A stretch of 64,000 nucleotides of DNA, taken from assembly GCA_050084515.1 (NCBI GenBank), contig CM114271.1, positions 46,562,001 through 46,626,000 of the forward strand, written 5' to 3'. The first letter of the stretch is position 1, and each line of letters opens with the position of its first letter. Source of the stretch: Blasia pusilla. Lineage: Eukaryota. Below, piece by piece: positions 7,590 to 59,749 of the stretch. The position numbers and the translations under genes are program-made. The notes beneath the pieces were generated by a model. The model was given only the letters and a program-made list of their open reading frames with translations. It was not told the origin of the DNA and did no database searches.

Positions 7590-9099
7590 CTTAGGTGTTG
7601 AACTTGATGACCTTGATGTATGGATGCGAACATGTTCTCAGAGGGCTGAGTTGTTTCGGAGAATGATGCCCATGGTGTTTGAGAACTCGGCGATTGCGCA
7701 ACATCGGGATATGTTGAGGTATGCGACTATCCGGGGAGGTGGTTATCGACCTACTATCTGGAGGTTTCATCAGGGAGACTATGTCTACTTGTAGCAGACG
7801 GCACCCATGACGTTGCATGTGACTGCTAGGCGTACTATCTTGAGAATGCGTGAGGTTTTGTCATCCGGTGTTCTCTTATTGGAGGGATGCAATGGTATGG
7901 TTTGGAAGGACCATGTGCGTAACTATGCGCCATGTTATCTTCCGAACATTGACGGTACAGTTGATCCGAGCTTAGCAATAGTTCCTGCAGGCTTGCGGTG
8001 TATGTTGTGTGGTTCCGCCCGTGATGCAGCCACTATGGTGGTCTGTGATGGGTGTTCGAGAGGATGGCATATGGCATGTTTGACACCACCTCTCACTAGG
8101 GTTCCTCAGGGACGATAGATGTATCCTAGATGTACATAGAGTAGGTAGTTCTATATTCTGACTTGTGTCTGCCACATGGATGACAAGAAGGCCACTAACA
8201 ATGGGGCCACATGAGCACCCGACCTTCTTGCTCTTAGCGTCCGAGAGATGTATGTCATGGTAGGTAGGGATAGATGGCTATCTGGAGTTAGAGGGACCTA
8301 ACCACCAGCTAGGGGGGGCGATTGGAGATATTTTGGTACTTCTTGTCTCGTTGTTTGGATTCCATGAGTTAGCATTAGACCGTGCGTGTTTGTATGTATG
8401 CGTGTTCGATGACAACGATGTATATTGTGTAGCGATGTATATGCGCACGACATCTGTCACGTATTTTAGGATAGAATGGTGAGATCTAGTAGAGCGCCTT
8501 TGCAAGTAGTGGAGGATAGACTCAGGAGGTGGAGGATGACTTGCTGAGGCTCCGGGAAACCTGAGAGAGCAGGTTTTCCCTTCGTTTCGGCTCATTTGGA
8601 GCCTTGTTGAGAACTTACTATTTTAGGTAAGTACCATTTTGAGTATATGATCAACTTTATATTTTTGGTAAGTATCCCTTGACCTCCTACATTAGGTCAA
8701 GAGCCAAGGAGGTGACTTGGGAGCATAGGTTACCATGGAAAGAGTTTGGGAGAGGGAAGGGGTATACCTCAAGGAGAGAGAGCTTGAGAGCTCATTCTCT
8801 CTTTGTTGAACCTCTTGGCATGAGGTGGCGGAGCTATGGTCTTGCTTGCCTTGTGTGTGTAACCCGAGCCTCTCATTAGGAGAGTGGGTTTGGTTTGATA
8901 TTGAGAGAGACATGTGAGAGTGCACACATATGAGAACTATGGTGTTGTGAGAGAGATTGGATCTTATTTTAATTGGAGATATTTTGGTACTTCCAATCTC
9001 GTTGTTTGGATGCCATGAGTTAGCATGGGATCGTGCGTGTTTGTGTGTGTGTTTAGTAACAACGATGTATATTGTGTAGCGATGTGTATGCGCACGACA
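7590..9099 (+). mobile_element. 3' portion of PHD-integrase Ty3/gypsy element (subfamily 2) with PPT-B1-A2-B2 terminal repeats
   Basis: Integrase C-terminus (MWMRTCSQRAELFRR...WKDHVRNYAPC) and PHD (CMLC...VCDGCSRGWHMACL). PPT agggggggcg at 8311-8320, B1 8321-8452, TC spacer, A 8455-8971, B2 8972-9099 ending GCACGACA. Confidence 0.9.
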
Positions 9100-14164: not shown

Positions 14165-16630
14165 CACTTTATTATAAAATAAACCTCAAAAGAGGACAAA
14201 GAAAGGTAATAACAACTCAAAAGAGGAGTAAAAAAATGCATAAAAGAATGCAAAGAGAAAATGGCAACAAGCCCATGTAAACACCGGCTTAACGAGCAAC
14301 ACGATTGATTGCTTAAAACAAATCTGACAAGAACACAAGTGGTTGGTCAGACGTGAATGGACGACGAGGCGAGCGACCTCCCACCACCTCCGCACGACGT
14401 ATTTATGCCAAGCCTTGTGCACGTTATAAGGCCACTGAGATGCATTGCCTAAAATAAGTAGTAACAACCGAGAGAGAAGGACTATGGGAAGGAGCAAGGT
14501 GATGATTCTTGAGGGAGTGGTGAGCACATGTTTTCAGGAAAGTATCAAAAGACACATGTAAATGACCGAATACTTCCACTGCAAACGGAAATAAATCCGT
14601 CAGTTGCATGTCTCACAGCATTACTTAACTCCTTGATTCTTGCTGCAGCTTCGGCCGCCAAACCTTTGGTATGTGCGGCTCTACACACCAAGTCAGAACG
14701 TGTTGGATCAGCAACCACCACATCACCTAGTGTCCGGAATCCACCTTGAGACATAACAAGATCCACTCTCCGATGAGAGGTTGCTTGTGTGGTTGAAGGT
14801 AGGACATGGAGTTGCTCTTGCCCAACGGTATATCCTGCCGTACGAGCCACCGATGCTACCGCCTCTCTAATGACATCATGTGTGGCCGTTCGTTCTCCAC
14901 CATGTGCACATTGGAGAATATGGATACCCTTGGCATCAATAGGATCCCCGCATACACAATTTGACACACCTAAGAGAGAAGGATGGGGGAGTCCAAGACG
15001 TAACCGCAAAGCTGTCGAGAATATACTTCGAGGAAGACAAAATGGAAGAATAAGAGGATCTGTAGTAAGCCACGCCTCTGCTCCAATACCCGCACATGAA
15101 CGTAGACGAGCTCGATTAGCGTCGGAGGATGCCTTTGAGAGAATGCTGGAAAAGTTGATTTGATGCAGATTCTCGGAGATATGCTCTTGAAGTCGATCAA
15201 GCCCTTCTGTAATTAGTTGATTGAAAGGGGGTAGAATTGCTTGTGTAGCAAGAGGAAGAAGAGCTCGTGCAGATCTTAGTTGTTGTTGAAATAACAAGTC
15301 CCCCTCCTCGACATGGGCGATATGATCCATCAAGATAGGTGTATCTCCTTGGAGAAACCTTGAAGCCATAATCGGTGCTACCAACGCCCAACTCCCCAAA
15401 AAGGCTGCGGAAGCAGATGTGATTGTGGAGGATAGTCCCACCCCTCCAAAAGAAATAGGCAAGATAGCTTGTCGTGAAGCAAAGACACCATCCTCTCCCT
15501 CAAAGGTATTCGAGCCAAGAAGTTGACCAAAAGTTGCCAAGATAGAAGCATTAAAAGAGGCCAGCCGATATAAGAAGCTTGAAGTGGGAGGACAAGTGCG
15601 AAGAAGGTAGGAAGGACGTCGAATAAAACCTTGGGAGAGAATCCCATAAGCCACTTGGGGATCCCCAAGATGAGGTAATAAATGAAGCCATTCCACGTCT
15701 TTCAAAAGGGCCTCATCCAAGAACTTTGAGACATAGTCAATGAAGCCAATTGGGACCCCAAGAACTCTAACCCCTTCAATATAAATGGGGAAATCAGGAG
15801 TAGGTGGGGTGAATATTGAGGGAAGGCATGAAGGAGACCATACTCCACATTTACTAAGTTGGACTTTAAGGTTTAAGAAAGAGAGTTGCTCCACGAAATG
15901 GGTATAAGCAGGAACCACTTCAGAAGGAGGACCTAAAATGTGAGTGTCATCAGCAATAGAAGGGAAAAGACAAGATGGAAATGCTTGCGCTGATGCTCGA
16001 AGGGCACGAAAATAGGCAATGGCAAAGAGTGGGCCTCCCATGGGATCACCTTGACGTGTGCCACAAGCCGATTGTAGAATACTATATTCCCCAGAAGTAG
16101 CATGATGGGAATAGATAATGGGCGTATCATAGGCATAGAAGGAGCGAACAAATGGAATGAGGCTCGCGAGTTGTCATCCTGCACAACGTAATTCCTCAAA
16201 GATGGCCGCACGAGAAACTGAATTGAATGCGTTAGCCACATCGAATTGAATTGCTATCCAATCTGGATGAATATCAAGAGTGGAGCGAATCCCATGCACC
16301 ATAGCCTCACAACCTCTAGAGTTGCCACTCCAAATTAATGAGGAAATAAGTGGGCACTAAAGTGAGGACGAAATTGCAAGCATAGGAATCGACTGACCAA
16401 GTGGTATAAAACCTCTCCAATAGCCAAAGGGCGCACACCTGAAGGAGGCTTATCCATAGCCAACAAACGACAAGCTCCTAAGAGCCTAGAGATAGAGAAT
16501 GGGAGACGACCTGCCGCCATATGTGCACACATCTTATATAGAGAGACAAAGCCACTTGCTGAATCTGCTGGGATAAAGCAATCGCGGAGATACTCAAAAA
16601 CCATCCCTGACAGCCCGCTTGCTGATAAAC
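14165..16630 (-). mobile_element. 5'-truncated non-LTR retrotransposon with RT and restriction-like endonuclease (CRE-like)
   Basis: RT motifs GVRPLAIGE, FDVANAFNSVSR, GTRQGDPMGGPLF and SIADD; thumb-region LPISFGGVGL; C-terminal CVCG...HILQC...H zinc motif followed by RRVDL...DVVVADP (RLE). Stop at 16335 plus frameshifts. Confidence 0.88.
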
Positions 16631-40269: not shown

Positions 40270-40740
40270 ACATTGGTCTAATGACATTTGAAAGCTTGGC
40301 TATTGTTTATCGTAAGGATATATTTGGATATACTACCATTCCTCGAGGGATTTATTATTTTGGGATTAGGAATTTCATGTTGGAGATTATATGTGCTTAA
40401 AGCAGTCAACATTGATATTTTTAGATATTACTACAAGACACACGATTTTGTGTATACGTGACGCGTTACGCATCAAAATCCTCATGTTGGAGGATCAAGA
40501 TAGTATGGTTTGGAAGGATCACGTGTGCAATTGCGTACTATGTCATCTTTCAAATCTAGATGAGAGAGTATATTCAAGCTTGGGAGTTGTACTAATAGGC
40601 TTGAGATATATGTTGTATGGATCTAAGATGGATATATCCATCATATTGGTTTGTGATGGTTTTTGTGGAGGGTATCATATGTTATGCTTCATTCCCACTC
40701 TTGATGCAGATCCCATTGAATAATAGGTGTGTGCTATATG
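40270..40740 (+). mobile_element. Degenerate integrase C-terminus and PHD fragment of the gypsy lineage
   Basis: TILCIRD...MVWKDHVCNCVLCHLSNLD...LVCDGFCGGYHMLC. Confidence 0.75.
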
Positions 40741-43700
40741 TGTATATTGTACTCTATTACATGAGGCTAAGAGTTTTAGTACTACCTAGCGTTAGGAAAC
40801 CTAATTTGTAGATAGGGGAAGGTTTGTAGTCTTGGTATATATGCATGAACCTCTTCTTTTTGTATAAATCTTCTTGGATGTTGGGAATTGATAGTGTTTA
40901 TTGTGTGAATGTGAATAGTGATGTAAATTGGGTATCGATTTGTATGCCCATGACAACTTTTAAATCATTGTTAGTCGAAACGTAGAATTCTACCATGCCA
41001 ATGGTATAGAGAATGAGCGGGATGTAAGGCTATATTTTTTTTCTTGGTCCAATGAAGTTAGTTAGAGAGTTTTTTCATTAGAACCAAAATTTTAAAAAAA
41101 CTCTTATTTTTATTTATGGCCAAGTAATCCATGGACTAAGTCAATGATCACTTAATGAATTGCGTGCATATGTGACCAATTTTTGCTATCTTTGGGTGAG
41201 GGCTCTTTTGGCTCTTTCCAAAGGTATATAAATGGAAAAGAATCTTGGATATCAAGATCCCTATTTTTCATATCAAGCGTTTGCAATACTTCTTCCTCTA
41301 AGGATTGGTACATAGGAGATAGACTGTTAAAGTTTGGATTTCCTCATGGCAAAGGGCAAAAGGATCTTGACAACCATATGTACTTTTCACTATGTTATTG
41401 GCCATATGCATGTAAGCCTTTCTTATTGCAATTTTTTTCATGGTTTCATTGTGCATGTTTTAGTATATTTCAAAGTGTATATGAATTGGAATTTGGGAAA
41501 ATCAAAGGTATTTTTTGTAAGGATATAAACAACGATATGCATGCAAAAAAAATTCCTTATATCCCTACAACAATATCGTATAGATCAAAGTATCAATACT
41601 TTGATCTACCCTATCGTTTTTCTCATAGGATCCATAAGGCAACTCATATATAGGTTATGGCCACTATTGTATGAAGGGTGAATGGGTGTAGGATAGATAT
41701 AAATGCATCATCCTCTTTAATATTTTCTTTTGATAGGTTGTAAAAAAATTCAATAATATAAATCTAACAATAAGAATGATCAATAGGAGCCCTCCAAAAA
41801 AAATTTAATGGGATGATATCCCTTTACTAATTTATCCAAAAAAAATCCGATATTCATGTTTAAGTTTATGATTCCGGATTTCAATCAACCTCTAATTCAA
41901 GATCTTTTCTTTATAAAAAATTTGCATCTAGCATTGCAATAATAACACTTCCATGTTTTTAGTGTGAATGTTAATGGTCCATATATTTTTTTTCTATATT
42001 CCATTTTAACCATACGCCACAACATTTAATCTTGTGGATGTGGAATTTTAACATAAGGTGTAATGGGAAAAATGTCCAAGGGATGCAAATACAAGCGTAG
42101 CAACCTTTGAGCCATATTCAATCTACGTTAGGGAACAAAGTTCTTTTAAAAATGATTAAATCCAGTTTAAATATCAAGAACGATCATGGATCGTCAATTA
42201 TGAATTTAGAAAGGTAGATGAGATTCTATCTATACTTAGAGGGATCTTTTTTAGTTCCCATTTTAGAAGGATATGATAACCTCTTATCTATTTTACCCTG
42301 TTAATTTACTTATATGTATGGATTACCCTTCCCTTGTGTTTGAGTAGCACTATTTGAGAGGGTTTATCTCTTATGCATCTTGTGGCACAATTAGGTGTCT
42401 TGGTAGTTGGTGATGCCACTTTGGCCTATGAGGATTAAGAAAGATGTATCATTAAAGGTAGTATCCTCTTTTATGAGGCCTTTCCTTGTTCTTCTTACCT
42501 TTGGTTCCTATGGAGAGAATTATGTATCATGTACTTCAGGTCCTTTGTGACATATTCTAGGTGGATAACCAATGCACATATGTTATCATGGAGATTGTCC
42601 ATGGAGATACATCCCCAAGGAGACTCACTTTTAGATTCATATTTAGATATCAAAGTCAAACATATGGATATCCGTGATACATTGTAGCTAGGTTATGCTA
42701 GTGTATCGGGCATGGATTTACTTAAGCTAAGAGTTGGCTAGGATTGATATTGAGATCACGTATTGGTCATTGGATTCTATTGACTCATATCTCTTTAATA
42801 TGAACATGGTATGCATATATAAAGTACTTAGCCATATTGGGAGTGCACATAGTGTTAGAACAATAAGTAATACCCTTCCAACAATTCATATCTGAAGATT
42901 TAGAAGGATTAGGTGTATCCAATCATTCATATATAGATATCTAATATTTATATGATAAATGGATCTTATATTTGATCTTATGACATCCAATGAATGTTGA
43001 TTAGAAATATATATTTGCAAGACACCAAAACTCCCTAAATTATAATGTCTAAGAACATCAAATTTTTTTTTTTTATTTTCTAGATATGGAATCTACAAAC
43101 CCTTTAATACAATTCTAGCCCAATTAACTTCTCCATGAGACTAATCCATCAATGGTTTGTTAAATGAGATCTTAGACCTATTTATACATGCCCAAATTTT
43201 CTCATTATAGGAAATTTTCTACTTGACAAGGCCTCATTTTCCTTTTTCATCTTGAGCCTTAATAATAGGAGAATTTATTTAGTACTTAGAAGTTTTTTGC
43301 AAAATTTTTGAGTTGCATGAAAATTTATTTTAGTACCTAAAAGATTTTTAACATCTAGGTTGCTTTTATGTGATACTCTTTGATTCTCCGTAATATGAAG
43401 GAACATAAAGATCATAGATTCTTAGAAAATTCCAAAAGAGAGATAAGAATTTGAGGTGATTTTCAAGAACTAGACTTTGAGTTTTTTGTTAAGTTTCCAA
43501 AGAATAATAATCTCTTAAAGATCCAACTTGATTTCTTTGCAAGTATGATGAAACTAACAAGTCTAAAGGAACATCATGGATTTGGTCAAATCTTGGCCTA
43601 ATTTTCATAACTCATATTTCATACAACAATGATACTTTCTAGTTCAAAATCAATGCCATACAAAATTAGTAAACTCAAAGGGAATTTTTGTGCATATAAT

Positions 43701-43879: not shown

Positions 43880-45560
43880 AAAGGATAAAAACCTCATCAT
43901 TATTCATCAACCACTTTAGATGGTTGATGGAGTCTAACAAGCCTATAGAAAAGCTTGCCAGATGGGCACTCTTCTTGGGGGAGTATGGTTTTCAATCTGT
44001 CCATCACCTCAAAATTCTAAACCAAGATGCAAACGGGTTGAGCGGTAATCCATACATGTGCTAGAGCGATGGAACTAGAGCTTAGTGGTATGGTGAGAGT
44101 GATGACAAGATGATGTCGTGTTGGGACACATCTACCTATTTGTGTCTATTGGCTATGTTAGGTTACCAGAAGGCATCCACTCCAAGAAGGAGATTAGACA
44201 GTGAGTCTTTATATTCAAATGCTAGTGAGGAGTCAAGAGGGACTCGAGACATCCGTGATCATGATATGGTCTTGGAGTGCTTATGCACTAATGTCTTAGC
44301 ATACACAGTGGGTACTACAAAGTGGGATTGAGTCTTATAGCAAGCATGGATTTTCAAATGGGATGGAAAGTAGGTGCTTTGAGTTTAGGAGAATGATCAA
44401 GTGCTGATAGTACCACATCCTTCACAATGTGCACAAGTTTTTAGACATGCTCACAAGGAGTTGGGCCATTTTGGATTCAAGCATATGTATAGCTTGCTTT
44501 AAATTCAATATTGGTGGCATAGTATGCAGATTGATGTTCAACATTTTGTAGCTAGATGCATAATATATGATACGATGTGGGCATCGTTCAATGCTCGGAC
44601 GTCACTCTTTCATCCTTTATTGATCACAGAATTAGGGTATTGCTAAAGTTTAGACTTTGCAAAGCCCTTACCATTGACAAGATTTGGTATGTGTTGGTCA
44701 TGGTGGAGGATTTCTCCAAATGGATTGAGTTGGTAGCATTGCTGGAAAATCGAGCAAGAGAGCATCTTATACATTTCTTAATCAAGTGATGAGTTATTTT
44801 GGCACACCAATAGAGGTGTTGTTAGAAGAGGGTATTAAGTTTAAGGATGACTTTCAAGCCTTATGTGATCAAGCACTCATAGATCATCATACAACTTCTC
44901 AAGATCATTTTAAGGCAGATAGTTTGGAGAGTTATGTGAGAAAGTTGTGAAGATGGTGAAGAGAGGATTGAGTATGCATAGGCTACAAAGATGACACTTA
45001 GGAGGTTGGGACCTACAGTTGCTCTGGTTGAAGAAGGATTACCGCTTGAGTCGATATATATCCTTGACATCATTTTCATCGTATTTCTTGCTCTATGGGA
45101 AAGAGCCAAATTTCTATCATATATGCGATAGGATGTTGTTGAGGTACTTGAACTTGATGACCCATATGTATTCTTAGTGGGCTAAGCTCCTTTGGAGAGT
45201 CATGCCTATGGCATTGGAGAATCTGGCTAGCACTCAATATTGCAATGCTCTGAGATAGGGGACGACGAGTGGAGAAGGCTATCGACCAGAGATTCGGAAA
45301 TTCCATCCTTGCAATTATGTCTACCAAAGGTAGATAGCATTGAAGATATTTGACCTGACGGCAAGACACACTATTTTGCGAGTGTGAGAGGCTTTCTCTT
45401 TAAGCGTTCTCGTGTTAGAGGATAGAGATGGTATTGTTTGGAAAGATCATATCCATAATTGTCTGTCATGTTATCTTCATAACATTGATGGGAGTGTCAA
45501 TCCAAACTTAGCAATTATTCCTACATGCTTGAGATATGTTTTGTCTGGGTCTACACAATA
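43880..45560 (+). mobile_element. Degenerate RNase H, integrase and PHD start of the gypsy lineage
   Basis: HQPL..WLMES, HKELGHFG, YVLVMVEDFSKWIELVAL, DGIVWKDHIHNC. Many stops. Confidence 0.8.
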
Positions 45561-45946: not shown

Positions 45947-46739
45947 CTTCCCTCCCCTTCACACATTTGGTGCTTTTAGGAATGGGGCCATGTAGAGAGT
46001 TAGTAGAGGGGGAGTAAATAATATACTTCATATTGCTAATGAACTAATGAGAGGAGGTGGCATATGTGCAAAGTACACCTATGAAGATACCTAGGGGCCA
46101 TAGGTTATACTCTTATGGAGGCCCATTTGAGCCTTTGTCTTTCTATTATGCTTGGATCCACTTACACATTGAGAGCTAAGACCTTGTGTGATTCCTAGAT
46201 TCCCTTGTATTGAGGGTGGGCTAGGATTGTATACATAAACCATACTATTTATAGAATTGTGTGTATTCTTATCATATTTTAATCATTATTGAGTGTTAGA
46301 GCTACTCATTAGAGAGGGAAAGACAAAATTTAGTTGTCAAATTTATTAGGGTTGTATAGTCAAACATGTATAGATGTTTTAGGATTCATAGTTAGAAGGA
46401 TCTCAGACTTGTGTGCATGACACCCGATCTATGTTAGCATCGATGTGTATTTTCATGAAAATCCCCATGTCATCCACATAAACATCACGACAAAATGAAA
46501 ATTGTTGACACATGGACAAGTAGTTGAAATACAACATATAACGTTTATGACATATCTATACCAACATTTCAAGAGGTCACACATACAATAAAACCAATTA
46601 GGAAGCAAGGGGTTAAGCTCTTTGATGGAATCACTTAACCCAAACCCACCCTCTACTTAAGGGAGTCCAAGAGGAAATCCAATTCGAACACAAGGTCAAC
46701 ATAGCTAGCACTACACCCTAGCCTATGCTTAAGGCTCAC

Positions 46740-47369
46740 TATCATGACTGTTAGGATAGATCGGCAAGATCTAGTAGAGCACCTTTGGAGATACTAGAAG
46801 ATAGCTTCAGGAGGTCGAGGATGACTTGCTGAGGCCACGGGTAACTTGAGAAAGCAGGTTTCCCCTTTGTTTCGGCTCATTTGGAGTCATATAGAGAAAA
46901 CTTACTATTTTGGGCAAGTTTCCATCTAGATTATAGTTGAATTTCCACTTTGGGAAGTGGCGATTTACCCGCTACAGTAGGTCAAGAGCCAAGGAGGTGA
47001 CCTGTGAGCATAGGTTATCGAGGAGAGAGCTTGGGAGAGGGAAGGGGATATACTCCAAGAGAGAGAGCTTGAGAGCTTATTCTATCTTCGTTGAACCTCT
47101 TGGCATGATGCAACGGAGCTATGATCCTCTTTGCCTTGTGTGTGTAACCCAAGCCTCTCATTAGGAGAATGGATTTAGTTTAACATGAGAGAGTGTGCAC
47201 ACCATAGAGAGCTTGGTGTGAGATGTGATATGAGATCTACTTGATTTATTGGAGATATTTTGGTACTCCTCGTCTCATTGTTTGGATGCCATGAGTTAGC
47301 ATCGAATTGTGCTTGTTTGTGTGTATGTTCAATGACAGCGATATATGTTGTGTAGCGATGCGCACGACA
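46740..47369 (+). mobile_element. Solo A+B terminal unit (solo-LTR equivalent) of gypsy subfamily 2 with 4-bp TSD
   Basis: Collinear with 8455-9099; ends tatcatga (decayed TGTCA) ... GCACGACA; flanked by TCAC at 46736-46739 and 47370-47373. Confidence 0.88.
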
Positions 47370-49309
47370 TCACCTATATAGAGAAAAACCTCTTCAAGAC
47401 TCACCTTGGGATTTACTAACCTCTCTCCTCACCCAGATCTCCAAGAAATTGACATGTCTTCATAAATTACAAAAGGGATGCCAACAAGTCATCATTATAC
47501 TATGAGATTCTAAGCCTATATGGAGATTCTCTATCATACTACATTATATTTTTTGGCTTGATTTCAACTAGAATTACACTTAACTCTCATTAACAATCAA
47601 GAGCTATCTCTTCCAATCAAGAAAGCCAACCATGGTCCTAAATAACTTCTCTAAAATGATAAGTAACGTAATATGGGCCCGATAATACCAACGTAGGCAA
47701 TAAATTACAACCAATTTTCATACAAGCATGCATATCAATGCTTGACCTCTCTAAGTATGTCACACAAAGTTACTCCTCTCCATTACAAATGACGTGTAAT
47801 AACGGAGTCATAAATTATAGGTTCCAAGTTTATAAAATTGTCTCTTTTCCAAAAGAAAAGAAGAGTGTGTGCTTCTTCAAATCACTCGTCCCAAGTATTT
47901 GCTAGTTTAATGGTTTGTGTGACTTGAGATGTTATGTTTCTTCGTCATCGATCCATGTTCATACACTCTCATACGATAGACATCCCTCATGTGTCAAGGG
48001 GAGATGGAGCAAGATGTTGATCTATCCCAAGTATGAGAAGTACAACAATTAAGAATCCAATCACCATTGATTTCTCAATAGTAATAATTTTGTGTAAGTC
48101 TAAGCACATGAACTCCATTCATTTCTCTCTTTAATGTTGCAATTATTTAGCACTAACTTATTTTGAGAGAAAATTAAACATAAAGGAAATTTGTATTTTT
48201 TTAGGATTTGGTTGTGGAAAAAAAATCTAAAATGTAATGTCTTAAGGGTAGTGAGAAGTTAAGAAAAAATGGTTGCAAGCTAAAGAAAAAAGATCTTTTG
48301 CAAGAAAAAAATAATAATTGATCATTTTTTTAAGATAAAGACATATCTATCTAAGAAGGTGTTTGAAGAGAGTGCATAGTCTCCAATAGCAGTAAAGATT
48401 GATTAAGATGAGGGGGGTTTACCAAACCGAATGTATGTAATCCTAAAAAAAATTTTCAATAGGACTTGTGTAATACTCCTTGGTGTTTGAGAGATCCAAA
48501 ATCAGGGCTATTTCAAATCCTAAACCCATGTAAACTCTATTAAAGTTTTAATTATTTTGTTGTAAAAAACATTTAGAATAAAATTTGGCAAGAAATTAAA
48601 AAATCTAATAATTGTGTCAATAGAGAAAATTATTTCAAAATATAAATCGTAGAAGGTAGTGAAAATTTCAGGAAAAATAGTGGAGGGAAGACAAGGATAT
48701 AATTTTCATAAACCAAAAGTTTAATAATGAATGATGGAACGAACAAAAATTGAGGAGCCTAAGCGTCTCCTGTCCATATCTTTGGTTCTATATCCCTCCT
48801 CTCATATTTGTGCTCTCCATCCATTGGATGATTTCATTCATGTATGTAAGAAGGGTATGACTTTCACTCTTGAATCTTGTGGGTATATGAAAACCTAAAG
48901 ATCTGACAACTCAAAACTTTCGTTCAACCCTTTAGCACAATTTTATTCCTTATGACTATGATTTTGTGATAGTAGGATTTCTCAAAGCATACCTACCCCA
49001 AGTTTTATGACTTAGTCACCAATTCGTAAAAAGAAAAAATAGGGTATTTAAGGAGGTACTTGCTTGGGTTGTAGCACATCACCATAATCCTTGAACACTC
49101 AAATATAAACCTTACATTCTTTAAAAGCAAAAAATATAATAGATGCCACAATTTATTGGTTAGAGGCCACATATGTGTAATCTCTAAAGGCTATGGCTCA
49201 TGGCCCACACAAGGGGACTTTGGGAAGCCCTATTGAGATCACACTAAACTTGTAGATTCCATTGAGAAGCTTGTAGGGACTCAAAATTGTAATAGGGTCT
49301 GAAAGTAAA

Positions 49310-50034
49310 AAAAATGCACTTTCTTATAGAAAAAAAGTCTCAAAAAGGATAAAGGAAGGCAACAACATGCCAAGAAGAGAATGAGTCAAGAAACATAAAA
49401 AGAAATTTGCAAGAAGCCATCACAAAAACCAACTCAATGAGCTACATAATGAATAACTTGAAACAAATCTCACAGAAACATTAGACGTTTACATGGATGG
49501 TCAAACAAAAATGGATGACAAGATTAGTGGCTACCAACCACTTCCGCTCGATGTGTCAAATCCAATGCTTGTGCACGTTGTAATGCCACCAGGATATATT
49601 GTCAAAAATAAGTAGTGACTATGGAGAGAGAAGGATTACGATAAGGGACGAGTTGATGATTCTTGAGGAACTAGTGAGCACATCTTTTGAAGAGATAATC
49701 AAAAGACACATATAAGTGCCCAAAAAAATCTACTATGAAAGGAATAAATCCATCGGTAATATGTCTCACCACATAACTCCTTGATTCTTGTTGATGTATT
49801 GGCCACAATAACTTTAGTATATACATCCTGACACACCACATCATAAAATATTCACTTAGCAAACCATCACATCACCCAATAGATGAAAGTCACCTTGGGA
49901 CATAACAAGATAAACTCATTCACAAGAGGTTGCTTGTGTAGTAGAAGGTAGGACGTGTAGTTACTCTTGCCCAACGATATACCTTGTTGTAGGAGCCATC
50001 AATAATATTTCCTCTCTAATCACATTGTGGGTTT
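49310..50034 (-). mobile_element. Degenerate 3' end of a second CRE-like element, interrupted by the gypsy insertion
   Basis: Collinear with 14165-14885 (e.g. gaggttgcttgtgt.gt.gaaggtaggac.tg.agtt.ctcttgcccaacg). Similarity stops at the TGTCAT start of the gypsy element. Confidence 0.8.
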
Positions 50035-50400
50035 TGTCATGACCATACGGATTATGTCGTAGAGTATGGTGTGCTAGTAGAGGCCATTCCTTATGTAGGA
50101 CCATAGTGGCTTGGTAGAAATGCGGTTCCATACATAGGGTTGGGGGTTACTCAGTTGGGGGTGACTTTCCCAGTAGGGCCCGCTCTTAGGTTGGAGGATA
50201 TAAGGTGGAGTGCACTCAAAAAATCGATTCTTTGAGTTGAGCCTTTATGCGTTGGGAGTTAGCCTTGGTAGTGAGTAGAGCTCTTGGCTATGGTGTTTCC
50301 CGCAAGCTTCGACCTAGATTCTCCCATCGTGGAGTGGGTTTGGCTCGATTGTATGTGATTGTATATGTGTTTTATGACAGTACGTCTTTCACGGATTTCA
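50035..50400 (+). repeat. 5' terminal repeat A1 (TG...CA, 366 bp) with TATA box
   Basis: TGTCATGACC...ATTTCA; TATAA at 50199-50203; homologous to 53559-53926 (-) and 63938-64000. Confidence 0.9.
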
Positions 50401-52226
50401 CTCAAAGAACTGCAGTTGATCGATGGTAGCTTCGATTGTAGATCAGTAGGATTTGGTTAGGGCTGATTGTGTACTCAACCGTGGATGTTCGTGGCTTGTG
50501 GCCTATGTTGGAGGTGTGAATCTGGTGCGTGGTTGGTTGGGAAAGAAGCGCCTTGCTGAGAGCTTTCCAACGCGCTTTAGATCGCCGGATTTCGTCAAGG
50601 GAGTTGGAAGTTATCAAGGATTGAAGATTCTGGTTCGTGTTCGACGGTTTTCTGATGTGGAGAACTTGGAGTGCGGAAGCTCTATTGAAGTTCATCCAGA
50701 TCGGGTGAGAGGTTCCTGCTGCTACTTGTATTGTGATCTCATGTGAATCTATCTGCTCGAGTGTGTGGAGCGTTGCGGATTTCTGCGTGCATGAAACTTG
50801 GCGGAAGCGCTGTCGGATTTACGATTCTGGAGGTGTATGGACAGCAAGTTTGTCTGATTTTTAGCTCGGAGTACAGAGCTCGGTTGTAGCTGATTTTTTG
50901 TGGAGAGATAGCTATGGTGGTCAATTGAATTTTGGTTGAAATATATTTGATTTCAATCACGGATTTGTGAAGTAATTTCTGATCGAAATTTCACGGACTA
51001 GCTCAAGGTCTGGCTATGGTGGACAGCGGATCGGAGGGGCTGGTTGGTTGGTGACTCGTTCATTGTTGGAGACGCCTATCCCGTTGGAGGCGCCCTGGTT
51101 GAGCCTCGAGCCATGTCTCGGAGTTTTGAGGCTTCGAGGCTTCGAGGCAACTCGTGGTAGCTCGGGGCGAGTGGGCGTGAGAGGCGGAGTAAGGAGCAAG
51201 GAGCAAGGAGCAAGCAAGCAAGTTCAACTGGAGTTTTATGGCCCTGACCAGGATCACTTTGAGTGGAAATCCGTTATAGGTGGTTTGAATTAATATTTTT
51301 GCAAACGGCACGTAGCAGGTTTTATACTTGCTTGCTTGGGCGTGAAGCAATTTTTGCAGGATTTGGGATTTGAGTTTTGCATAACTGGTCACCCATCTTT
51401 GGGCTATTCTACCTAGAGGACGCTTAACTGTTGGGTTCTTAACTATGCCAGTGTACACACTGTTGTAGCTCATTTGGTGTTGTTCGGAGATGTGTTAGGC
51501 ACTTTATGCATCTCAGGTTTTTGGTTGATGTACCTCTAGCGCATAGTACGGTGTAGCCTCTCCATACAGGTGATATTTTCAGGTGCTGTGAGTTCGACTA
51601 GCACGTCATCGACCCGCGGCGGAGTAGCTATTGCGTTAGAATTGTGTGGTGGGTTTTGTGGATTCAGGGGGCACCACCTTTGGTGGATTATGTTACCTTG
51701 AATTCCATTTGCGATTGGAGGGTTGTCGTTGGACTTCCTGTGTTTGGATCCCCTCCATCGGTGCTTCTTGCTAGCGCGCCCATTGTTAGGGTAGACGCTG
51801 ATTTCCAGAGTAGTGTTACTCCTGTGTGCTACTGATAGTGAGGCTGGAGTGATGACGAGTAGACCGTGGGAGGCTTCTTGTGGTGATGAGAGGTTAGGTT
51901 GCCTACACCCATAGCTAGTAGAGCTACACTAGTAGAGCGACATCGACGTCACTTGGTAATTTGGTGGTGGTGCGGCATCGGCATTGGTCATCACGGAGTT
52001 GTCGGGTGGTCTGGTTGGGGACCGTGGTGCGGACAGTGGTGGTTTCACACGGAGTGGATTTAGGTATCGGCTACCTTTTCCACTTCCGACGGTTGATGAA
52101 GAGGAGGACGAGGGTGTTCCAAACACCGAGTCTTCTACGTTGTTATCGAGTGTTGCAGCTCCATTGATTTGGGACATGGACGGTGGATATGGAGCCATGA
52201 AGGGCCCACGATGATACTCGGGTGCA

Positions 52227-53452
52227 GTGGGCACCATTGAGTTGGAGGACTTCATGCAGGAGTTTGATACGTGGTGTGATATGCAGATGTTGCGGAACGC
52301 CACGTTGTTTACATCCTTCTTGGCTTGGAAGGGGTTGTTTCAGCACTTGGAAGGACCACCCATGGATGATTACCATGAGTTTAGGAAGGACCATGTTGCT
52401 GAGATTGAGGCATGGAGACAATATTGGTCTCCAGGCTATGTGTCTATCACCCATGGTGGTATTGGTAGTAGTGCTCCTACTATGCCAGCCAGCCCGACGT
52501 TGAGTGGTACGAGTACGAGCCGGAGTGGGGGTACCAATGGAGGTACTAGTGGGGGTACTAGTGGAGGTTCTAGTGCCCCACTATCGTTCAGCCCGGTTGC
52601 AGAGTTCTTCAAGAGGTTGAAGAAGAACTATCAGGGAGTGAAGACGGAGAAGTTGAGGAATCTTTAGGACTTTGAGCGAAAGACTGGTGAGAGTCTTCGT
52701 GAGGCATACATTCGTATCACGCTGATTTCGATTACCAAGGTGTGCGAGGATCGAGGCGATCCATTTTTGGTATGGGATCTTGGAGAGAGATTTGCGCCGC
52801 AGGGTACGTGATGCTACTCTTATGAGTGATGATTCACCCACATTGACCCATGTATTTGCTTTATCTGAGAAGATTGAGCTTAACATGATGAAGGAGAGAG
52901 TGGTGACATCCGCATTCAGTAGGGATACAACTACTACTTCTCGTGTTCAGCCGCCCACCTCACAGTCTCGTAGTAGTGGTGGTGGTAGTAGTAGTGGGAG
53001 TCGTGGGGGGTACACACGACCTCAGTCAAGTCCTAGAGGGACACTTGCGCAGAGACCATTGCCTTCATTTGCTGCCCCGCAGCAGGGCGATCATGTTGGA
53101 CATGTGGAGGTGATCATGTTAGGAAGTTTTGTCCCCAAGAGGATGGGAGACGGACTTTGGAGGATGGGCCTCAGTCGGCCCCAACTAAGTGTGATGATTG
53201 TGGGAGACCAGGTCATCCTCGAGAGCGTTGCTTTGATCTTCATCCAGAGTTGAGATCAGGCCGCGGCCGTGGTGGAGTAGCTCTGAGAGGCCGAGGTGGT
53301 AGAGGTGGTAGGGGTGGACCAATGGTTGGAGAGCCTACGGTGGCTACCCCTACCACTACGACAGAGTCAGCTATGGCTACCAGGATTGAGCAGTTGGAGC
53401 AGAAGTTGGCTACTATGGCTGGTATCCAGCATAGATCAGGTTCGGGAGCAGG
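52227..53452 (+). pseudogene. gag with two zinc knuckles (frameshifted, truncated by the nested insertion)
   Basis: Capsid-like ELEDFMQEFDTWCDMQ...FFKRLKKNY; knuckles CWTCGGDHVRKFC (~53094) and CDDCGRPGHPRERC (~53190); RGG-rich tail. Confidence 0.8.
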
Positions 53453-56400
53453 TGTCGTGCGAATCCACATCGTCATACAACATACATCGCTGACATACCA
53501 TACGCACATACATACATAACATAGACGAGAGTATCCACAAAGGCAAGTGTACCACAATTGAAATGCGTGAAAGACCTACTGTCATAAAACACGTTTACAA
53601 TCACATACAATCGAGCAAAGCCCACTCCACGATGGGAGAATCTAGGTCGAAGCTTGCGGGAAACACCATAGCCAAGAGCTCTACTCACTACCAAGGCTAA
53701 CTCCCAAGCATAGCAGGCTCAACTCAAAGAATGATGTTCTTTGAGGGCAAGCCACCTTATATCCTCCAACCTAAGAGCGGGCCCTACTAGGAAAGTCACC
53801 CCCAAGTGAGTAACCCCCAACCCTATGTATGGAACCACATCTCTACCAAGCCACTACGGTCCTACATAAGGAATGGCCTCTACCAAAGACACCATACTCT
53901 ACGACATAATCCGTATGGTCATGGCGGTGTCGTGCGAATCCACATCGTCATACAACATACATCGCTGACATACCATACGCACATACATACATAACATAGA
54001 CGAGAGTATCCACAAACGCAAGTGTACCACAACTCGCCCCCCTAACTGGCGGTTAGGTCCCTCTAACTCCCAGGTAGCCCTATACATCTACTACATGCTA
54101 TACACCTTCTTGGGTGCCCGAATCAGAAGGCCGGGTGCTAGGTTGCCCCATCGTTAGTCGCACATCGTAATCCATATCATGCAAAGATCAAGTCATCTAC
54201 CTCTCCTAAGTACATCGAGGACAAACCCACCTTCCAGTAGGAACAACATCCAAACGTGGAGTCAAACACATCATGTGCCAACCCCTAGAACACCGATCAC
54301 ACACCAACATACGGGTTGCGTTACCAGCAGACCCACACAACATGCACCTCAAGCTAGCACGTATCATGGCTAAGCTTGGGTCAACAATACCATCCACATT
54401 TGGAAGATGACATGGCGCACAATTACGCACATGGTCCTTCCAAACAACTCCATCACGACCCTCCAACATGAGAACTCGAAGCTAACACCTCACACACTCG
54501 TAAAATAGTGCGGCTGCCATCACATCCAACGTTGTCGGGCAATCTGCTGCAAATAGACATAGTCCCCACATGGAACCTACTGAATCGATGGTAGATAACC
54601 TCCACTCGAATGGTTGCATACCGCAACGTATCCTGTGTTGAGCAATGGCAAGATTCTCAAAGGTTGTTGGCATAACTCTCCGAAGAGCTCCGCCCCGAGA
54701 ACACACCCTCATCCACATCTCGGGTCATCAAGGTTCACCACCTCACTAGACTCGACAATTCTTTCTTTGGCAAGTCAAGATCTCGACCGTATAACAGAAA
54801 ATAAGGTGAGAAGGAAGCCAAGGATGCTTGGCGATCGAACCTATATCCCATGGCTAACCATGGCAAGCTCGAATATCCTGTCTCCAAGATGCCCTTCAGA
54901 GGCCATACTTGCGCAATGCCCTCTTCACCGTCGAACCACATGCTCAGCCAAACCATCCGCCTCTGGATGATCTCGAGGCGTGGTCCGATGATCAATCAAC
55001 GCCTTGTCACACAAGACATGAAACTCACCTGAAACTCAGACCCTGGTCGGTCAAGACACTTCAGTGGTGCACCAAAATGACTAAGCACTCTATCCAAACG
55101 CATACGCCGTTCCTCACTTGCCTTGTCCGGTAATGCCACCAACTCAATCCACTTGGAGAAGTGCTCCACCATCACCAACACATATCGATGATGTAAATGC
55201 GGTGAACGGTAACGGTCCCGCAAAGTCCACACTCCAACGGTAACCCAACCCCATAATAGGCAAGGGGTGTAATTGTGGTGTAGGGGCATTAAATGATGCC
55301 CTCACCGGTCACAAACCATACAACGTGACACGAATGCTGCACCTGAGTATGCATGCCACGCCACCAATCTTGGCCAAGGAGTAAGCTATACGCACGCTTT
55401 ACCCCAAAATGTCCCAACTCCTCATGGACATGTCGCACAATCGCTCTCTCTCGAGCCAAATGTGGCACTACTCGTACTCTACCATCCTCCCACACGCGGA
55501 GAATATGTGTTCCCTCAATCGATACCTCTTAGCACGTTGAAGAACACGGTCTCGCTCCTTGGCACTCACTATGCCTGGCACCCTCTTTGGTCCGTAGGAA
55601 CTCCAACACCAACGCATCATCATGAATATCACGCTGATCCGTACCACCATCTCCAACCTTAGGATCTGAAGGCTGGCCGTCTACCCTCTGACTAGAGTAA
55701 GATATCATGTGGTCCTCCATACTAGAGTCCACCCCTAACCAACATAAAAAGGCGGATGCATGCCAACCTGGCACCATCTCCTCATCAACCTCGCCATGCC
55801 ATCTAGCCCCAGTTGTATCCTCTTGGCTAGTACATGGGTTCCTACTCAACCCATCAACATCAAGGTTGGCAACTCCAGGTCTATGTACCACCTGGAAGTC
55901 ATACTCCTGTAAGATAAGAGCCCACCGTGCAAGCTTCCTTGTAAGCTTGTCCGACTCCATCAACCACTTGAGCGGCCGGTGATCAGTAACAAGGGTAAAC
56001 TGTGTGCCAAACAAGTAACACCTAAAGTGTGCCACAGCCCACACTATTGCCAAGCACTCTCCCTCATATGAACTATAGCGCGACTCCGCTGCATTATTCG
56101 AACGACTTGCATAGGCCACCACAAACTCCATGTGCTCATCATCATATTGTGTCAACACCGCTCCAAGTCCCAACCTACTCCAATCAGTGTGTAACTGGAA
56201 TGGGCGCCCTCTGATAGGTCTCCTCAAGATAGGCGCCGCCACCAACTGGGCCTTAAGCTCCACAAAAGCTCTCTCTTGATCATCTCCCCAGTGCCACTCT
56301 TGATATGATTTCAGCAATTGGTTCAAAGGCTTTGCCATAGCACTAAATCCCTTCACATACCTCCGATAGTAGTTCGCCAATCCCATGAATGCTCGAACTC

Positions 56401-59400
56401 TACTCACATCTACCGGACGCGGAATAAGTGCAATAGCCTCCACCTTTGCTTGCTGAACTCCCAAACCACCTGGATAGATCACATAACCCAAGTACTCAAC
56501 ATCCTCATGGAAGAACTTACACTTTCCTGGATGCAAACGTAGACCATGAGCTTTCAACCGCTCAAACACCATCTGCAAATGTATTTGATGCTCCTCCACC
56601 GTGTTACTGAACACCAAGATATCATCAATGTAACACCGAACAAAATCCAACCCTGCTAGGATCCTGTCCATCACTCTTTGAAACTCGGAAGGTGCATTCT
56701 TCAACCCAAAGGGTAAGAATTTCCACTGGTACAAACAATCCTTGCCATGAGAGTTGACATCCCAAAATCGTTGTCTTGGCCTTGTCACTCTCCCGAATCG
56801 GCAATTGATGGTATCCTGCCCGAAGATCCAAAGTACTGAAAATCTTTGCCTGTCCCACCACATCAAAGATCTCCTCAGGTGTAGGCATGGCATACCTATC
56901 GGCCTTGGTTTGCCGATTGATAGGACGGTAATCTCCACACATCCGCCTATCCGTGTAGTTGCCATGCATATCCTTTTTAGCAGGCATGATAGTGGTTGAT
57001 GCATACTCTCCATGCGACAACTCCACTAATCCAGCCTCCAAAAGGTCCAACGTCCTACTCTGAATCAAGTCCCTCTCCATATCACTATATCGGTAGGGAC
57101 GACAGAAGATTGGCGTATCACTAGCCAAATCAATCCGTATACCGGGTCCAACCAGAGAACCCAACTCCTTCATGCTAAAGGCAAAACAACTCCTATAAGC
57201 ACGTAGGAGGCTGTGTCAGCGTCGTTTCTCACCTCCCGTAGCTTGGGCCCAAGTAATGGCTCCCAAGTCTCCTCCTTTGGCACACTAGAGGGAGAGGCGA
57301 TGCCATTGTCTGCTCATAACCCCCTCACAAGATGGTACACCCTTAGCTACACCATCATCCGAGCAAATAACTCCTCCACCAAAGCATGAGCAACCAACTC
57401 CACATGCCCACCATTACATCCCATCTACTCCAAGGATGCAAAATACTACTCTCCTCTTGACCGATGCCTCTACCGTCCCGGTAGCCATCGAGCTCATTAC
57501 AAGGGGTGGAAGACCCATGACATAGTCCGAAGTCGATTTGCTCGGCCATACCAAGACTCAAAATCCAAGTCAAACAATTCAGGTCCATGGCGACCCAACA
57601 CATGACGTCGTGAAGCCTCGAAATAGAAGCAACATTTGTCACACCGATGCAAATCCCATCGCACGCTCTCTCTCATCAGCGTTAGGCTCCACCAATTGTC
57701 GCACATGAGAATCCCATACAAGCCCCCAGGACCACCTTCCTGTAGGCATGTGACGAGGAAAACTCACAAATGTGGGTAGTGCCATCTAGGGGTGGCCCAC
57801 ACGGTTCACCTTGCCATGGGTGACCGATCAATAACCCTCACCACTTGAGAAAGTCGCCCAAGATATCAAGATACTATCCATTGTAAGGCGAGATCATTGC
57901 CTTTGCATCATATGCTCGACGTAGAACCTCCCTAGGCAACAAGTTTGTCCACCACAAGCGTGGGCGATGTGCACGTGAGCCAACTCGCATTGCATCCAAC
58001 AACACCGCTGGTCCAATCCAAGACCGCACCTCATGAACACTCGCCATCATCCGGGTCCGAGTGTCACCCAACAATGGAACATTCTCCAAAATGCTAAGCT
58101 AGAGCACGCGCTTGCGATGAACATTGAAGATGTCGTAACACCCGTAACATCTCCCAAAACAATCGAGCTAGGGTCATGTAATCCCTCACCACGACCAAAG
58201 ACGTGTATGACATCTCGACATGGCCATCCGATGCAAATCACCAAATCCACAGGACCAACCTCTCAAGGTCCTGCGCTCAACAATGCAATGTGTGATGGTA
58301 AAGCATCGGTACCCACGAATAGCTAATGGCGGCAACAATGGGGGGATACCTCCATCAAGCGACCAATATGTGGATGAGACTCTCGGTGGGCGACCGTCTC
58401 ATCTCGCTCCACATACACGTATATCCCTAAGAGGAATACCGGCTGCAACATGGATGCATTACCAAACGTGCTGATCCCACCAAAGAGATCTAACACACAA
58501 ATTGCCCTATGTTGGCGAGTGGGATCTTGCCATACAATGGGTGTAGTATCCAAAGGGGATAACCCAATAGAGTCTTGTTAGGAGTCCGTGGGGTCTCCTC
58601 TTTGATGGGGAAAGCGGCATGACCTCACACCAAGCCTCTGCACTAGGCTTGAGCCTTGCCCATTCTAGATTCAAACATCAAAGTGGCACATCCAACGATG
58701 AGGATGCCAATTCTGCAAAAATAGGGACCTCCTCTACCTCCTCATGAGGAGAATCCATAGCAGAAACATAACCCTCCAAAAGTCTCTGGCCAAGTGACTA
58801 CTCCACTAAAACCACCCGTATGATGCTAACATTGTTGGGGAAGACCCTCCTAGTCGAGCCCCCAAATAAATCTCAGATGGAACTTGGCTCATACGTCCAT
58901 CCCCGGATTGCCAACCAGGTCTGTAAGACGTTGTCTCGATTTATTTAATCCATCTGAAAACCCATCGGGTCTTCTCCTCCAACTAGTACATCATACGACT
59001 GGTTTTAGTGGATGTGACTCACTTGGCAGATATTCCCAAGGGAGCTTTCGCGTCGCATGATTGGTCTCAATGAGGTACAAAAAACTTCTCCCTATCATGA
59101 ATTGAGATCTATCATTGGCTCCTCCAAGTGATGTTTGAATCTAGAATGGGCAAGGCTCAAGTTCGCCCTCGAATACCCCAAACCAATACATGCCGCCTTG
59201 CCCAACATCAAGGGCTGCGCTCCTGAGTCTAACAAGACTCTATCCGGTCTATACACTGCCTTGTAGGACTCACCAATCGGAAGATCCCACTCCGGTTGTC
59301 CAACATACATACACCAGGTGTAAGCCTTCACGATCAATGGTTGGCCGTCGATGTAATGCATCCATCTTCGCGGTATTCTGCCTGCCGGAAGTAACGTGGT

Positions 59401-59735
59401 ACTCAATGCTACACGAGATAGAGGGTCGCTCACCGCAACATCCTCATCCACCTCAACACGTGAGCAAGAATACACCCCCATGTTCACACAACCGCTATTA
59501 GCTGAAATGGGTACCAGGAGCTAAGTCAACTCCTAAAGCCATCACATTGCATTGAAAAAATGGGGGGAACACCGGTTGCCATCCGTCATCTGATGGATTT
59601 GCATCCGTGTCTACTGGACACCAATGTAGATGCCTCGGTCCCCCCGTCTGCCGGCTCAATAGGTGAGGAACCATGGATGGAGTCCTTGTTTTGGACAACA
59701 AGAATGACGGGAAGCGACATCTCGAGGTTCAATAC
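53453..59735 (-). mobile_element. Nested inverted copy of the same family (5'-truncated): PR, DNMT, RT, RH, INT, PHD, B1-A2-B2
   Basis: Protease VLLDSGAQ (~59230); DNMT 57550-58510; RT YIDD; RH DWS...EGECLA; INT; PHD 54209-54345. PPT 54032-54045, B1 53928-54031, A2 53559-53926, B2 53453-53556. Its repeat variants differ from those of the outer copy. Confidence 0.85.
57550..58510 (-). pseudogene. C5 DNA cytosine methyltransferase domain within the gypsy pol (frameshifted)
   Basis: Motifs in canonical order: I VLDLFGGIS, IV DLVICIGWPC...GEGLHDPSS, VI ENVP, VIII DAMRVGSRAHRPRLWWTNL, IX-X EPNADERER.MGF / RRHVLG..MDLNCLTWIL. Confidence 0.85.
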
Positions 59736-59749
59736 CGTGCTCTAGCTTA

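Follow-up and report, generated by a model that had tools for sequence, protein, structure and literature searches.

Split direct repeats in Ty3/gypsy elements with a PHD-finger integrase from a Blasia pusilla contig: a possible case of integration from an internal repeat junction

How does a retrotransposon that carries a DDE integrase come to lack two identical long terminal repeats (LTRs), and which of its repeat borders would the integrase then recognize? The question is raised by a 64,000-nucleotide stretch of Blasia pusilla DNA (contig CM114271.1, positions 46,562,001–46,626,000; hereafter the window), in which a Ty3/gypsy element ends at 8311–9099 in a polypurine tract (PPT) followed by two different repeats, A and B, in the order B1-A2-B2. 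Textbook LTR retrotransposons and retroviruses integrate linear complementary DNA (cDNA) via its two tips, and the 1- or 2-LTR circles are seen as dead ends. In the elements described here, the repeat expected from reverse transcription (PPT|B ... A|PBS, where PBS is the primer-binding site) and the ends used in integration (TGTCA ... GACA with a 4-bp duplication) fall at different places. Read most simply, this would mean internal cutting by the integrase and joined cDNA tips in every productive copy.

Structure of the 3′ terminus at 8311–9099

Direct reading and subsequent re-extraction of the sequence gave the order PPT, B1, tc, A2, B2 on the plus strand. A conserved block of the 3′ untranslated region (UTR), GGAGTTAGAGGGACCTAACC...AGGGGGGGCG(A), occupies 8284–8320/1 and has the PPT at its end (..TAGGGGGGGCG). 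B1 (8321–8452, 132 nt, end ...GCGCACGACA) directly adjoins this block, and its terminus, ..GCACGACA, is the sequence of the element's right integration end. The spacer tc (8453–8454) separates this right-end sequence (..GACA) from the left-end sequence (TGTCA..) and is the proposed internal integrase site. A2 (8455–8971, 517 nt) starts with TGTCACG, the left integration end, and by analogy with the other subfamily of the window it should hold the promoter, R, and U5. The terminal copy B2 (8972–9099, 128 nt) also ends in ...GCGCACGACA and forms the right end of the element (..GCACGACA); it is 87.1% identical to B1 (115/132 aligned columns). Thus, all parts of the PPT-B1-A2-B2 order and the CA-tc-TG junction reported in an earlier note on this DNA were recovered at re-extracted coordinates.

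Upstream of the repeats, a remnant of the integrase C-terminus and PHD finger, corresponding to the last ~180 aa of the polyprotein, was located at 7597–8136 (plus strand) with tblastn and Pfam. It showed 62% identity to P0004 (aa 849–1028, tblastn), and the open reading frame (ORF) at 7795–8118 matched the PHD family PF00628 with an E value of 3.6e-9. Everything upstream of 7597 is missing, and the element is a 1.5-kb 3′ remnant (7597–9099). The analysis therefore confirmed that 8311–9099 is the 3′ end of a 5′-truncated Ty3/gypsy element whose integrase ends in a PHD finger.

Conservation of the repeat order in a second subfamily

The same order was found in two copies of the window's other subfamily (subfamily 1), one on each strand. 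Copy Y (53453–54071, minus strand) lies in the gag of another subfamily 1 element, X, and comprises, in sense order, the PPT block (54071–54034), B1 (54033–53928), the spacer cc (53927–53926), A2 (53925–53558), whose start is mutated at the junction, and B2 (53557–53453), which is 98.1% identical to its B1. Copy X′ (plus strand) consists of the PPT block (63794–63830), B1 (63831–63935), the spacer tt (63936–63937), and an A2 that begins at 63938 and is cut by the window end (64000). As had been claimed, the repeat sequences of the two subfamilies are largely different. The A repeats gave 48.8% identity, a value from a forced global alignment of sequences with no blastn match between them. The B repeats gave 62.1% globally and could be aligned only over their last ~65–69 nt, at ~77% identity. 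The PPT block and the last part of B are therefore shared, and the A parts are not alignable.

The 3′ ends of related elements

Relatives were collected as 80 metagenome loci with 45–86% identity over the integrase-PHD part. De-duplication by the 3′ flank reduced these to 68 groups, since many loci represented one place assembled in several samples. The 3′ end was readable in 49 groups; 15 were cut by the contig end, and 4 had no match to the A/B library. The B-A-B arrangement was present in 25 of the 49 readable ends (24 plus L010, which has an unrelated A-like piece after it), and a single full B followed by unrelated sequence was present in 23. The remaining end, L014, is a deletion form in which a partial A-B directly follows the PHD stop. 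Two pairs are likely residual duplicates (L057/L055, with identical offsets, and L002/L003, with branches of 0.001); without them the counts are 24 and 22. B thus follows the PPT in 48 of the 49 readable ends, L014 excepted, and B1 is not absent from most members. Three of the four loci without a library match likewise had a G-run, then 108 nt (L016), 146 nt (L066), or ~190 nt (L076), and then CA-nn-TG. A close direct-repeat pair was detected after the PHD stop in 20 of the 38 loci with at least 1500 nt downstream, whereas the same detector found none in the 3.6-kb upstream coding region of 24 loci, so the repeat pattern is not due to chance.

The single-B copies, in which PPT-B is followed by flanking sequence, include L003, L004, L006–L009, L013, L023, L030, L037, L044, L059, L060, L064, L069, L070, L073, L079, and others. 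Several of them have an A-only 5′ end and a perfect 4-bp duplication (L003 TGTT, L004 ACTA). Further deletion forms were seen at 3′ ends, namely B-A(1–92)-B in L071/L077, B-A(1–73) followed by unrelated sequence in L033, and, in L014, A(179–340)-B after the PHD stop.

The junctions between B1 and A2 were highly uniform. Of 27 de-duplicated junctions, 23 matched (G/A)ACA-NN-T(G/A)TCA, with a spacer of exactly 2 nt, in a regular-expression search that allowed 0–6 nt. The other four are degenerate, three of them having 2 nt by eye, and no junction showed another spacer length. The spacer letters in the relatives were GC (9), AC (7), AT (5), TC (1), and GT (1), and the three spacers of the window are tc, tt, and cc. 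The ..ACA and TGT.. sequences are the right and left ends of the integrated element placed back to back. Cleavage by retroviral-type integrases occurs after CA and yields a 2-nt 5′ overhang; a pair of such cuts, 2 nt apart at ..ACA-nn-TGT.., would accordingly produce two ordinary processed ends. The three window copies in two subfamilies, the 25 of 49 relatives, and the 2-nt spacer in 23 of 27 junctions support the view of the earlier note that a mechanism, rather than chance or assembly error, lies behind the conserved order.

The 5′ ends and target duplications

All ten unique readable 5′ ends carried A without B, preceded by an unrelated flank. They belong to X, L012, L049, L053, L003, L004, L007, L031, L037, and a second element in L063; L009 was left out as 5′-truncated. 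Since the 5′ end carries A alone, the layout is A1-internal-PPT-B1-nn-A2-B2, that is, split direct repeats. In the window, A1 of X lies at 50035–50399 (plus strand), with no B before or after it: the upstream flank is unrelated, and downstream it is followed by ACTCAAAGAACTGCAG... rather than by B. This A1 is 92.5% identical to A2 at 53558–53925. The complete identity of 50033–50097 and 63936–64000 supports the possibility that X and X′ are one element. The tt that precedes A1 of X (50033–50034) is the same as the X′ spacer; no such match occurs in the other complete copies, and it is probably due to chance. A repeat family represented at 14340–14883 and 49494–50032 (73–78% identity) forms the left flank of X with its second copy and helps to fix the X boundary at 50035.

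Complete copies of the form A1...B1-nn-A2-B2 numbered four (L012, L049, L053, and X, if X and X′ are one element), and those of the form A1...B numbered five (L003, L004, L007, L031, L037). A perfect 4-bp target duplication flanked four of the eight full elements (L012 CATA, L049 CATA, L003 TGTT, L004 ACTA); in L007 the duplication matched at 3 of 4 positions, and L053, L037, and L031 had none. The duplications indicate that A1...B2 and A1...B were each inserted as one piece by an integrase-type reaction. The possibility that B1 and B2 represent a long target duplication of a solo A was rejected, because the 4-bp duplication flanks the whole unit. L012 and L049 belong to different families and have the same duplication, CATA, which may be coincidental, at odds of 1 in 256, or point to preferred targeting of CATA|TG.

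Signals of reverse transcription

The PPT, a G-rich run, directly adjoins the first base of B1 in every locus read. At the other end, a putative self-priming PBS, ACTCAAAGAA (50400–50409, plus strand), adjoins A1 of X. It is complementary over 10 nt to TTCTTTGAGT within A1 (50228–50237), and this complement is preceded, at a distance of 29 nt, by a TATAAG box. A complement of this length was reached by 5 of 1000 shuffles of A and by none of 100 internal control windows. In Tf1, the first 11 nt of the RNA serve as the primer.

A complement of at least 9 nt, starting no more than 3 nt from the end of A, was found in seven of the ten unique 5′ ends (X 10 nt, L012 11, L003 12, L007 12, L004 9, L053 15, L031 13). 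The observed length was reached by 0–38 of 1000 shuffles in these seven, and the complements lie inside A, 84–173 nt before its end. In L049 and the L063 element the complement was limited to 8 nt, a length that does not exceed chance expectation (reached by 187 and 177 of 1000 shuffles, respectively), and in L037 no complement of the sequence after A was found inside A. Three unrelated PBS sequences were involved (ACTCAAAGAA(CT), AATTCTAGAAAAACT, and AATCACCAAAAGT); because the pairing sequences differ between families, the pairing covaries. A tRNA-type PBS (TGGTAGC..), 23 nt after A1 in X, was dropped in favor of the adjoining self-complementary sequence that covaries in three families. Five elements (X, L003, L007, L004, L053) have a TATA box 23–32 nt upstream of the complement, so that the complement falls where transcription is expected to start, in the manner of self-priming Tf1-like elements. 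Taken together, the PPT, PBS, and TATA signals imply that the reverse-transcription repeat should be B+nn+A and not A+B.

In the L043 family, the U5 end and PBS are known from L053 as ...GCATTTC | AATTCTAGAAAAACT. Eleven intact B-A-B copies of this family carry the letters a (6 copies), aa plus g (1), aat (3), or aattt (1) at A2|B2; L071 was left out of this count because its A2 is internally deleted. These letters are the first 1–4 letters of the family's PBS, AATTCTAG, with one extra letter in two copies. Even sister copies differ, with aat in L054 and a in L056, and with aattt in L043 and a in L050. Such variation fits a junction made anew in each cycle, in which the U5 tip with primer-templated letters is joined to the U3 tip.

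Transcripts across the repeat junctions

Two raw RNA-seq runs from one study (X22 and X23), which carry the same species label as the best DNA match, were placed on 53300–54400. The reads represent the sense strand of the element; over the gag of X (53300–53447) the mate orientation is opposite, as expected for a plus-strand gene. Sense depth was ~130 in the 3′ UTR, 46–114 in B1, and 13–47 (X22) or 4–57 (X23) across A. It fell to 0.38 in the first bin of B2 (53522–53558), compared with 13–20 (X22) or 4–30 (X23) in the part of A adjoining B2. The few reads deeper in B2 belong to a joint (53508 or 53983 to 54081) and are really placed on B1. Eight reads passed from the end of A into CTCAAAGAACTGGAG...GATGGTAGC, that is, the PBS and leader, with a loose end at 53559, and 5 and 15 reads passed from B through gt/gc into TGTCATGACC. 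RNA thus spans A|PBS and B1-nn-A2, and not A2|B2, which is the pattern expected for R-U5-PBS...PPT-U3-R. In addition, variant copies with a 97-bp deletion (53983–54081), which removes the PPT and the first half of B1, are expressed, the joints being covered by 2–8 reads per run. Matching pieces of DNA contigs X1 and X2 measured 60–90 nt and were too short to span B1-A2-B2.

Proposed mechanism and its alternatives

We propose, with moderate confidence, that self-primed reverse transcription followed by internal integrase cutting on end-joined cDNA explains the split repeats. The genomic RNA would start inside A1 and have its poly(A) site inside A2. Self-primed, Tf1-like reverse transcription would then yield the repeat B+nn+A, with U3 formed by B+nn and the first part of A, and R-U5 by the rest, so that the cDNA would be [B-nn-A]-PBS-internal-PPT-[B-nn-A]. 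The integrase would act on the two back-to-back end sequences within the repeat and not on the cDNA tips. In the productive form, the tips would be joined (A2|B2 being the U5 end against the U3 start) and the molecule opened at the site adjoining the PBS. The joining could occur through a 2-LTR circle, end joining after integration, or a template switch. Joined tips and opening beside the PBS would give exactly A1-PBS-internal-PPT-B1-nn-A2-x-B2. If a 1-LTR circle were opened, or both sites of a linear molecule were used, the product would be A1-internal-B, a form without the 3′ U3-R and expected to be dead. The single-B copies could have arisen in this way or through later B1xB2 deletions. A broader claim, which we put forward only tentatively, is that a whole clade of DDE-integrase elements integrates via an inherited palindromic ..ACA-nn-TGT.. 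in the LTR and that only tip-joined cDNA replicates again. This green-lineage clade is represented in DNA associated with liverworts and mosses and has relatives in algae, both charophytes and chlorophytes.

Several observations weigh against this proposal. The circle or end-joining step is inferred, no extrachromosomal DNA having been observed. If 2-LTR circles were opened at random, the mirror form A-B-nn-A-internal-B should be as common as the observed form; it was not seen, against four complete copies of the latter, among which X is included on the basis of its identical A ends. This absence has a chance of ~1 in 16 and is a mild strain. The single-B copies, 23 of 49, should be dead on arrival, which would make the cycle costly unless they are secondary deletions. 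Terminal branch medians of single-B and B-A-B copies were 0.041 and 0.038 (p 0.59) in one comparison and 0.042 and 0.031 (p 0.48) in another, a weak test that neither proves nor excludes either origin of the single-B copies. The letters at A2|B2 lie in an A/T-rich stretch, and their variation could be ordinary indel noise. A pile-up of 10 molecule starts at 53764 in each of the two runs, beside the TATA box of A2, coincides neither with the predicted transcription start nor with any plausible poly(A) site. The copy at 8311–9099 has no 5′ end of its own, and its A1-only state is taken from its relatives. Finally, the metagenome loci come from few sample series with unknown hosts, and many fall in only three or four families.

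Alternatively, the repeat could be B+nn+A as proposed above and the extra terminal B could be added on linear cDNA, with no circle, by an end-to-end template switch of the reverse transcriptase from the U5 tip to the U3 start, the integrase then taking the leftmost internal site together with the second or third as the right end. Such a switch would explain the missing mirror form among the ten 5′ ends and the near-equal frequency of single-B and B-A-B copies, and the variable PBS-derived letters at A2|B2 fit a run-off followed by a switch. However, it has no direct evidence, it needs a frequent non-homologous switch, and the complete copies are few (4 B-A-B and 5 single-B). We consider this route unlikely.

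DIRS/PAT-like replication in which the recombinase was swapped for an integrase appears rather improbable. Transcripts would then begin within A1 and end within B2, and the B1-A2 junction, comparable to the internal complementary region of DIRS-1, would be only a template that restores the tips and closes a circle for integration. The order A1-internal-B1-A2-B2 is indeed that described for PAT and Ngaro (PMC8969392, PMC4157794), and the internal region of DIRS-1 is reported as essential for restoring the ends (PMC7192593). This scheme likewise needs a circular or end-joined intermediate. However, no RNA reads cross A2|B2 (0.38 against 13–20 in X22 and 4–30 in X23 in the adjoining A), and the PPT adjoins B1 and the PBS adjoins A1, as in ordinary LTR-type reverse transcription. 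Moreover, 4-bp duplications are present, whereas DIRS elements are described without them (PMC8969392), and no tyrosine recombinase was found in the ORFs scanned.

It is very improbable that the elements have an ordinary LTR A+B (TG..CA) whose 3′ part, B1, was duplicated into the internal region after the PPT. The A+B unit does have TGTC..GACA termini, and a solo A-B unit of the 8311–9099 subfamily lies at 46740–47369 (plus strand) with no B1 or PPT ahead of it. It is flanked by the 4-bp duplication TCAC (46736–46739 and 47370–47373), and its A (46740–47247) is ~80% identical to A2 at 8455–8971. However, recombination between A1 and A2 of the split form would be just as likely to leave a solo A-B. 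B follows A in none of the ten 5′ ends, a PBS-like sequence directly follows A, the PPT adjoins B1 and not A2, and RNA reads pass from the end of A into the leader. Two separate insertions (an A-B element behind a B-terminated one) or an assembler looping through the repeat can be given hardly any credence: solo A-B units exist and 53453–64000 is rearranged into a large inverted repeat, but the 4-bp duplication encloses the whole A1...B2 in L012 and L049, a 2-nt spacer is not a 4-bp duplication, the layout recurs in three window copies and many independently assembled contigs, and RNA reads cross B-nn-A.

Coding domains and relatives of the elements

Pfam searches of the window ORFs and locus L003 detected RVT_1, RT_RNaseH, rve, Integrase_H2C2, and PHD. 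The order in pol, mapped by tblastn with P0004 and P0017, is reverse transcriptase, RNase H, and integrase (DDE, rve). The ORFs scanned with Pfam for Phage_integrase (tyrosine recombinase), 7 from the window and 10 of the 20 from L003 with at least 90 aa (10 of 14 on the plus strand and 0 of 6 on the minus strand), gave no match. No chromodomain was found by Pfam either, and the integrase C-terminus has a PHD finger instead. Strings resembling C-x2-C-x4-H-x4-C and the string LLDSGA were visible by eye in ORF translations; these degraded ORFs gave no Pfam match.

The best named protein relative of the window integrase-PHD is from Marchantia polymorpha (84% identity), and Calypogeia, Klebsormidium nitens (52%), Sphagnum, Volvox, and Tetrabaena were among the other matches. 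In several metagenome relatives the polyprotein also includes a C-5 DNA methylase domain; in P0017, PF00145 was detected at aa 82–140. In the window, 57627–58595 (minus strand) and 59780–60303 (plus strand), upstream of the reverse transcriptase, are homologous to P0017 aa 142–287 and P0061 aa 775–1130. The degraded window fragments of these two regions gave no Pfam match to the methylase domain. This homology to the N-terminal part of methylase-carrying relatives links the clade to KnitGypsy-Dnmt3 of K. nitens.

Relation to known systems

KnitGypsy-Dnmt3 is described in a figure legend as having DIRS-type repeats with a Gypsy domain composition (de Mendoza et al. 2018, PMC5890265, Fig. 4c legend). 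The present clade also combines A-coding-B-A-B repeats with Gypsy domains, and relatives of the window element have the C-5 methylase in the same polyprotein. The host here, however, is liverwort-like, and the window copies are degraded, with no Pfam methylase on the fragments. The 2018 account, as far as the legend and its accompanying text go, gives no PPT or PBS placement, junction anatomy, target duplications, or mechanism (PMC5890265); its supplements may hold more. A Gypsy element with DIRS-like split repeats is thus already in print for a relative, and the window elements are land-plant members of a barely described kind.

In the open-access literature searched, to which subscription papers and supplements are external, no mechanism for split repeats in integrase elements was found. 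Queries combining split direct repeats with integrase or Gypsy gave only papers on recombinase elements and reviews, and the name KnitGypsy occurred in no paper beyond PMC5890265. Within this literature, the mechanistic reading appears to be new.

Published accounts regard split direct repeats of the form A1-internal-B1-A2-B2 as the hallmark of the DIRS order, whose elements are said to make no target duplications (PMC8969392; PMC4157794; PMC7192593), and TOC1 of Chlamydomonas has been called a non-autonomous DIRS element (PMC9940879). PAT, Toc, Ngaro, and VIPER, as described, share with the present elements the order A1-internal-B1-A2-B2 and the juxtaposition of the element tips at the internal B1|A2. 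However, they are reported to have a tyrosine recombinase and to lack integrase, protease, and target duplication, whereas the present clade has a DDE integrase, a 4-bp duplication, a PPT, and a PBS.

Self-priming is reported for Tf1/Sushi and Tcn1 (PMC6317226), in which, as putatively here, the PBS pairs with the start of the element's own transcript and not with a tRNA. Those elements have ordinary LTRs and a chromodomain, in contrast to the split repeats and PHD finger found here. A chromatin-reader domain fused to the integrase end is likewise described for chromoviruses (PMC6317226, PMC6673714); the domain identified here by Pfam is a PHD finger and not a chromodomain. The Chlamyvir clade is also described with a chromodomain rather than a PHD finger.

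Integrase cleavage of palindromic LTR-LTR junctions has been reported for foamy virus and, in vitro, for HIV-1 (PMC1905944, PMC1180852). The retroviral 2-LTR junction resembles the B1/A2 junction in being a CA..TG palindrome of two viral ends that is cut internally by integrase (PMC1180852, PMC1905944). However, the retroviral junction arises from ligated cDNA tips as a side path, whereas here the palindrome is inherited in the repeat with a 2-nt spacer, and the ligated tips (A2|B2) are not the proposed cut site. With Ty3/gypsy elements in general, the present ones share the PPT before the 3′ repeat, the PBS after the 5′ repeat, and the short target duplication. They differ in having no two identical LTRs: A alone stands at the 5′ end, B-nn-A-B or B at the 3′ end, and the B+nn+A repeat is present once, in permuted form.

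If the proposed cycle is correct, the "dead-end" circular form and internal integrase cleavage would both be put to natural, obligatory use. The cycle would provide a natural system, open to ordinary assays, for the old idea of junction-based integration, and it would explain the repeat layout mentioned in passing in 2018. It would also mean that the split-repeat layout is compatible with an integrase, whether as a precursor of recombinase elements or by convergence, and would bear on how the tyrosine-recombinase retrotransposons acquired the same layout. In addition, LTR finders that seek two equal terminal repeats will miss or mis-bound such elements in bryophyte and algal genomes.

Other features of the window

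The regions 53453–58108 and 59736–64000 form a large inverted repeat, in which the outer arms are 98–100% complementary and the inner parts 93%, and two subfamily 1 copies stand head to head. The unique center of 1.6 kb (58109–59735) contains a protease-like LLDSGA string on the minus strand. The gag of X ends at 53452, and its continuation is present in RNA reads; a 20-nt consensus of these reads was not found in the window at up to 3 mismatches, so that the 5′ end and target duplication of copy Y could not be located. The rearrangement at 53453–64000 could have arisen by inversion-duplication or by nested insertions accompanied by loss, or it may reflect a misassembly.

Two more distant remnants were also noted. 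A PHD-finger remnant at 40373–40744 (37% identity) is followed, at 40745–40960, by a short G-run and a ~135-nt block ending in ATGACA-ac. A separate RNase H-integrase remnant, whose 3′ end is interrupted, lies at 43915–45558.

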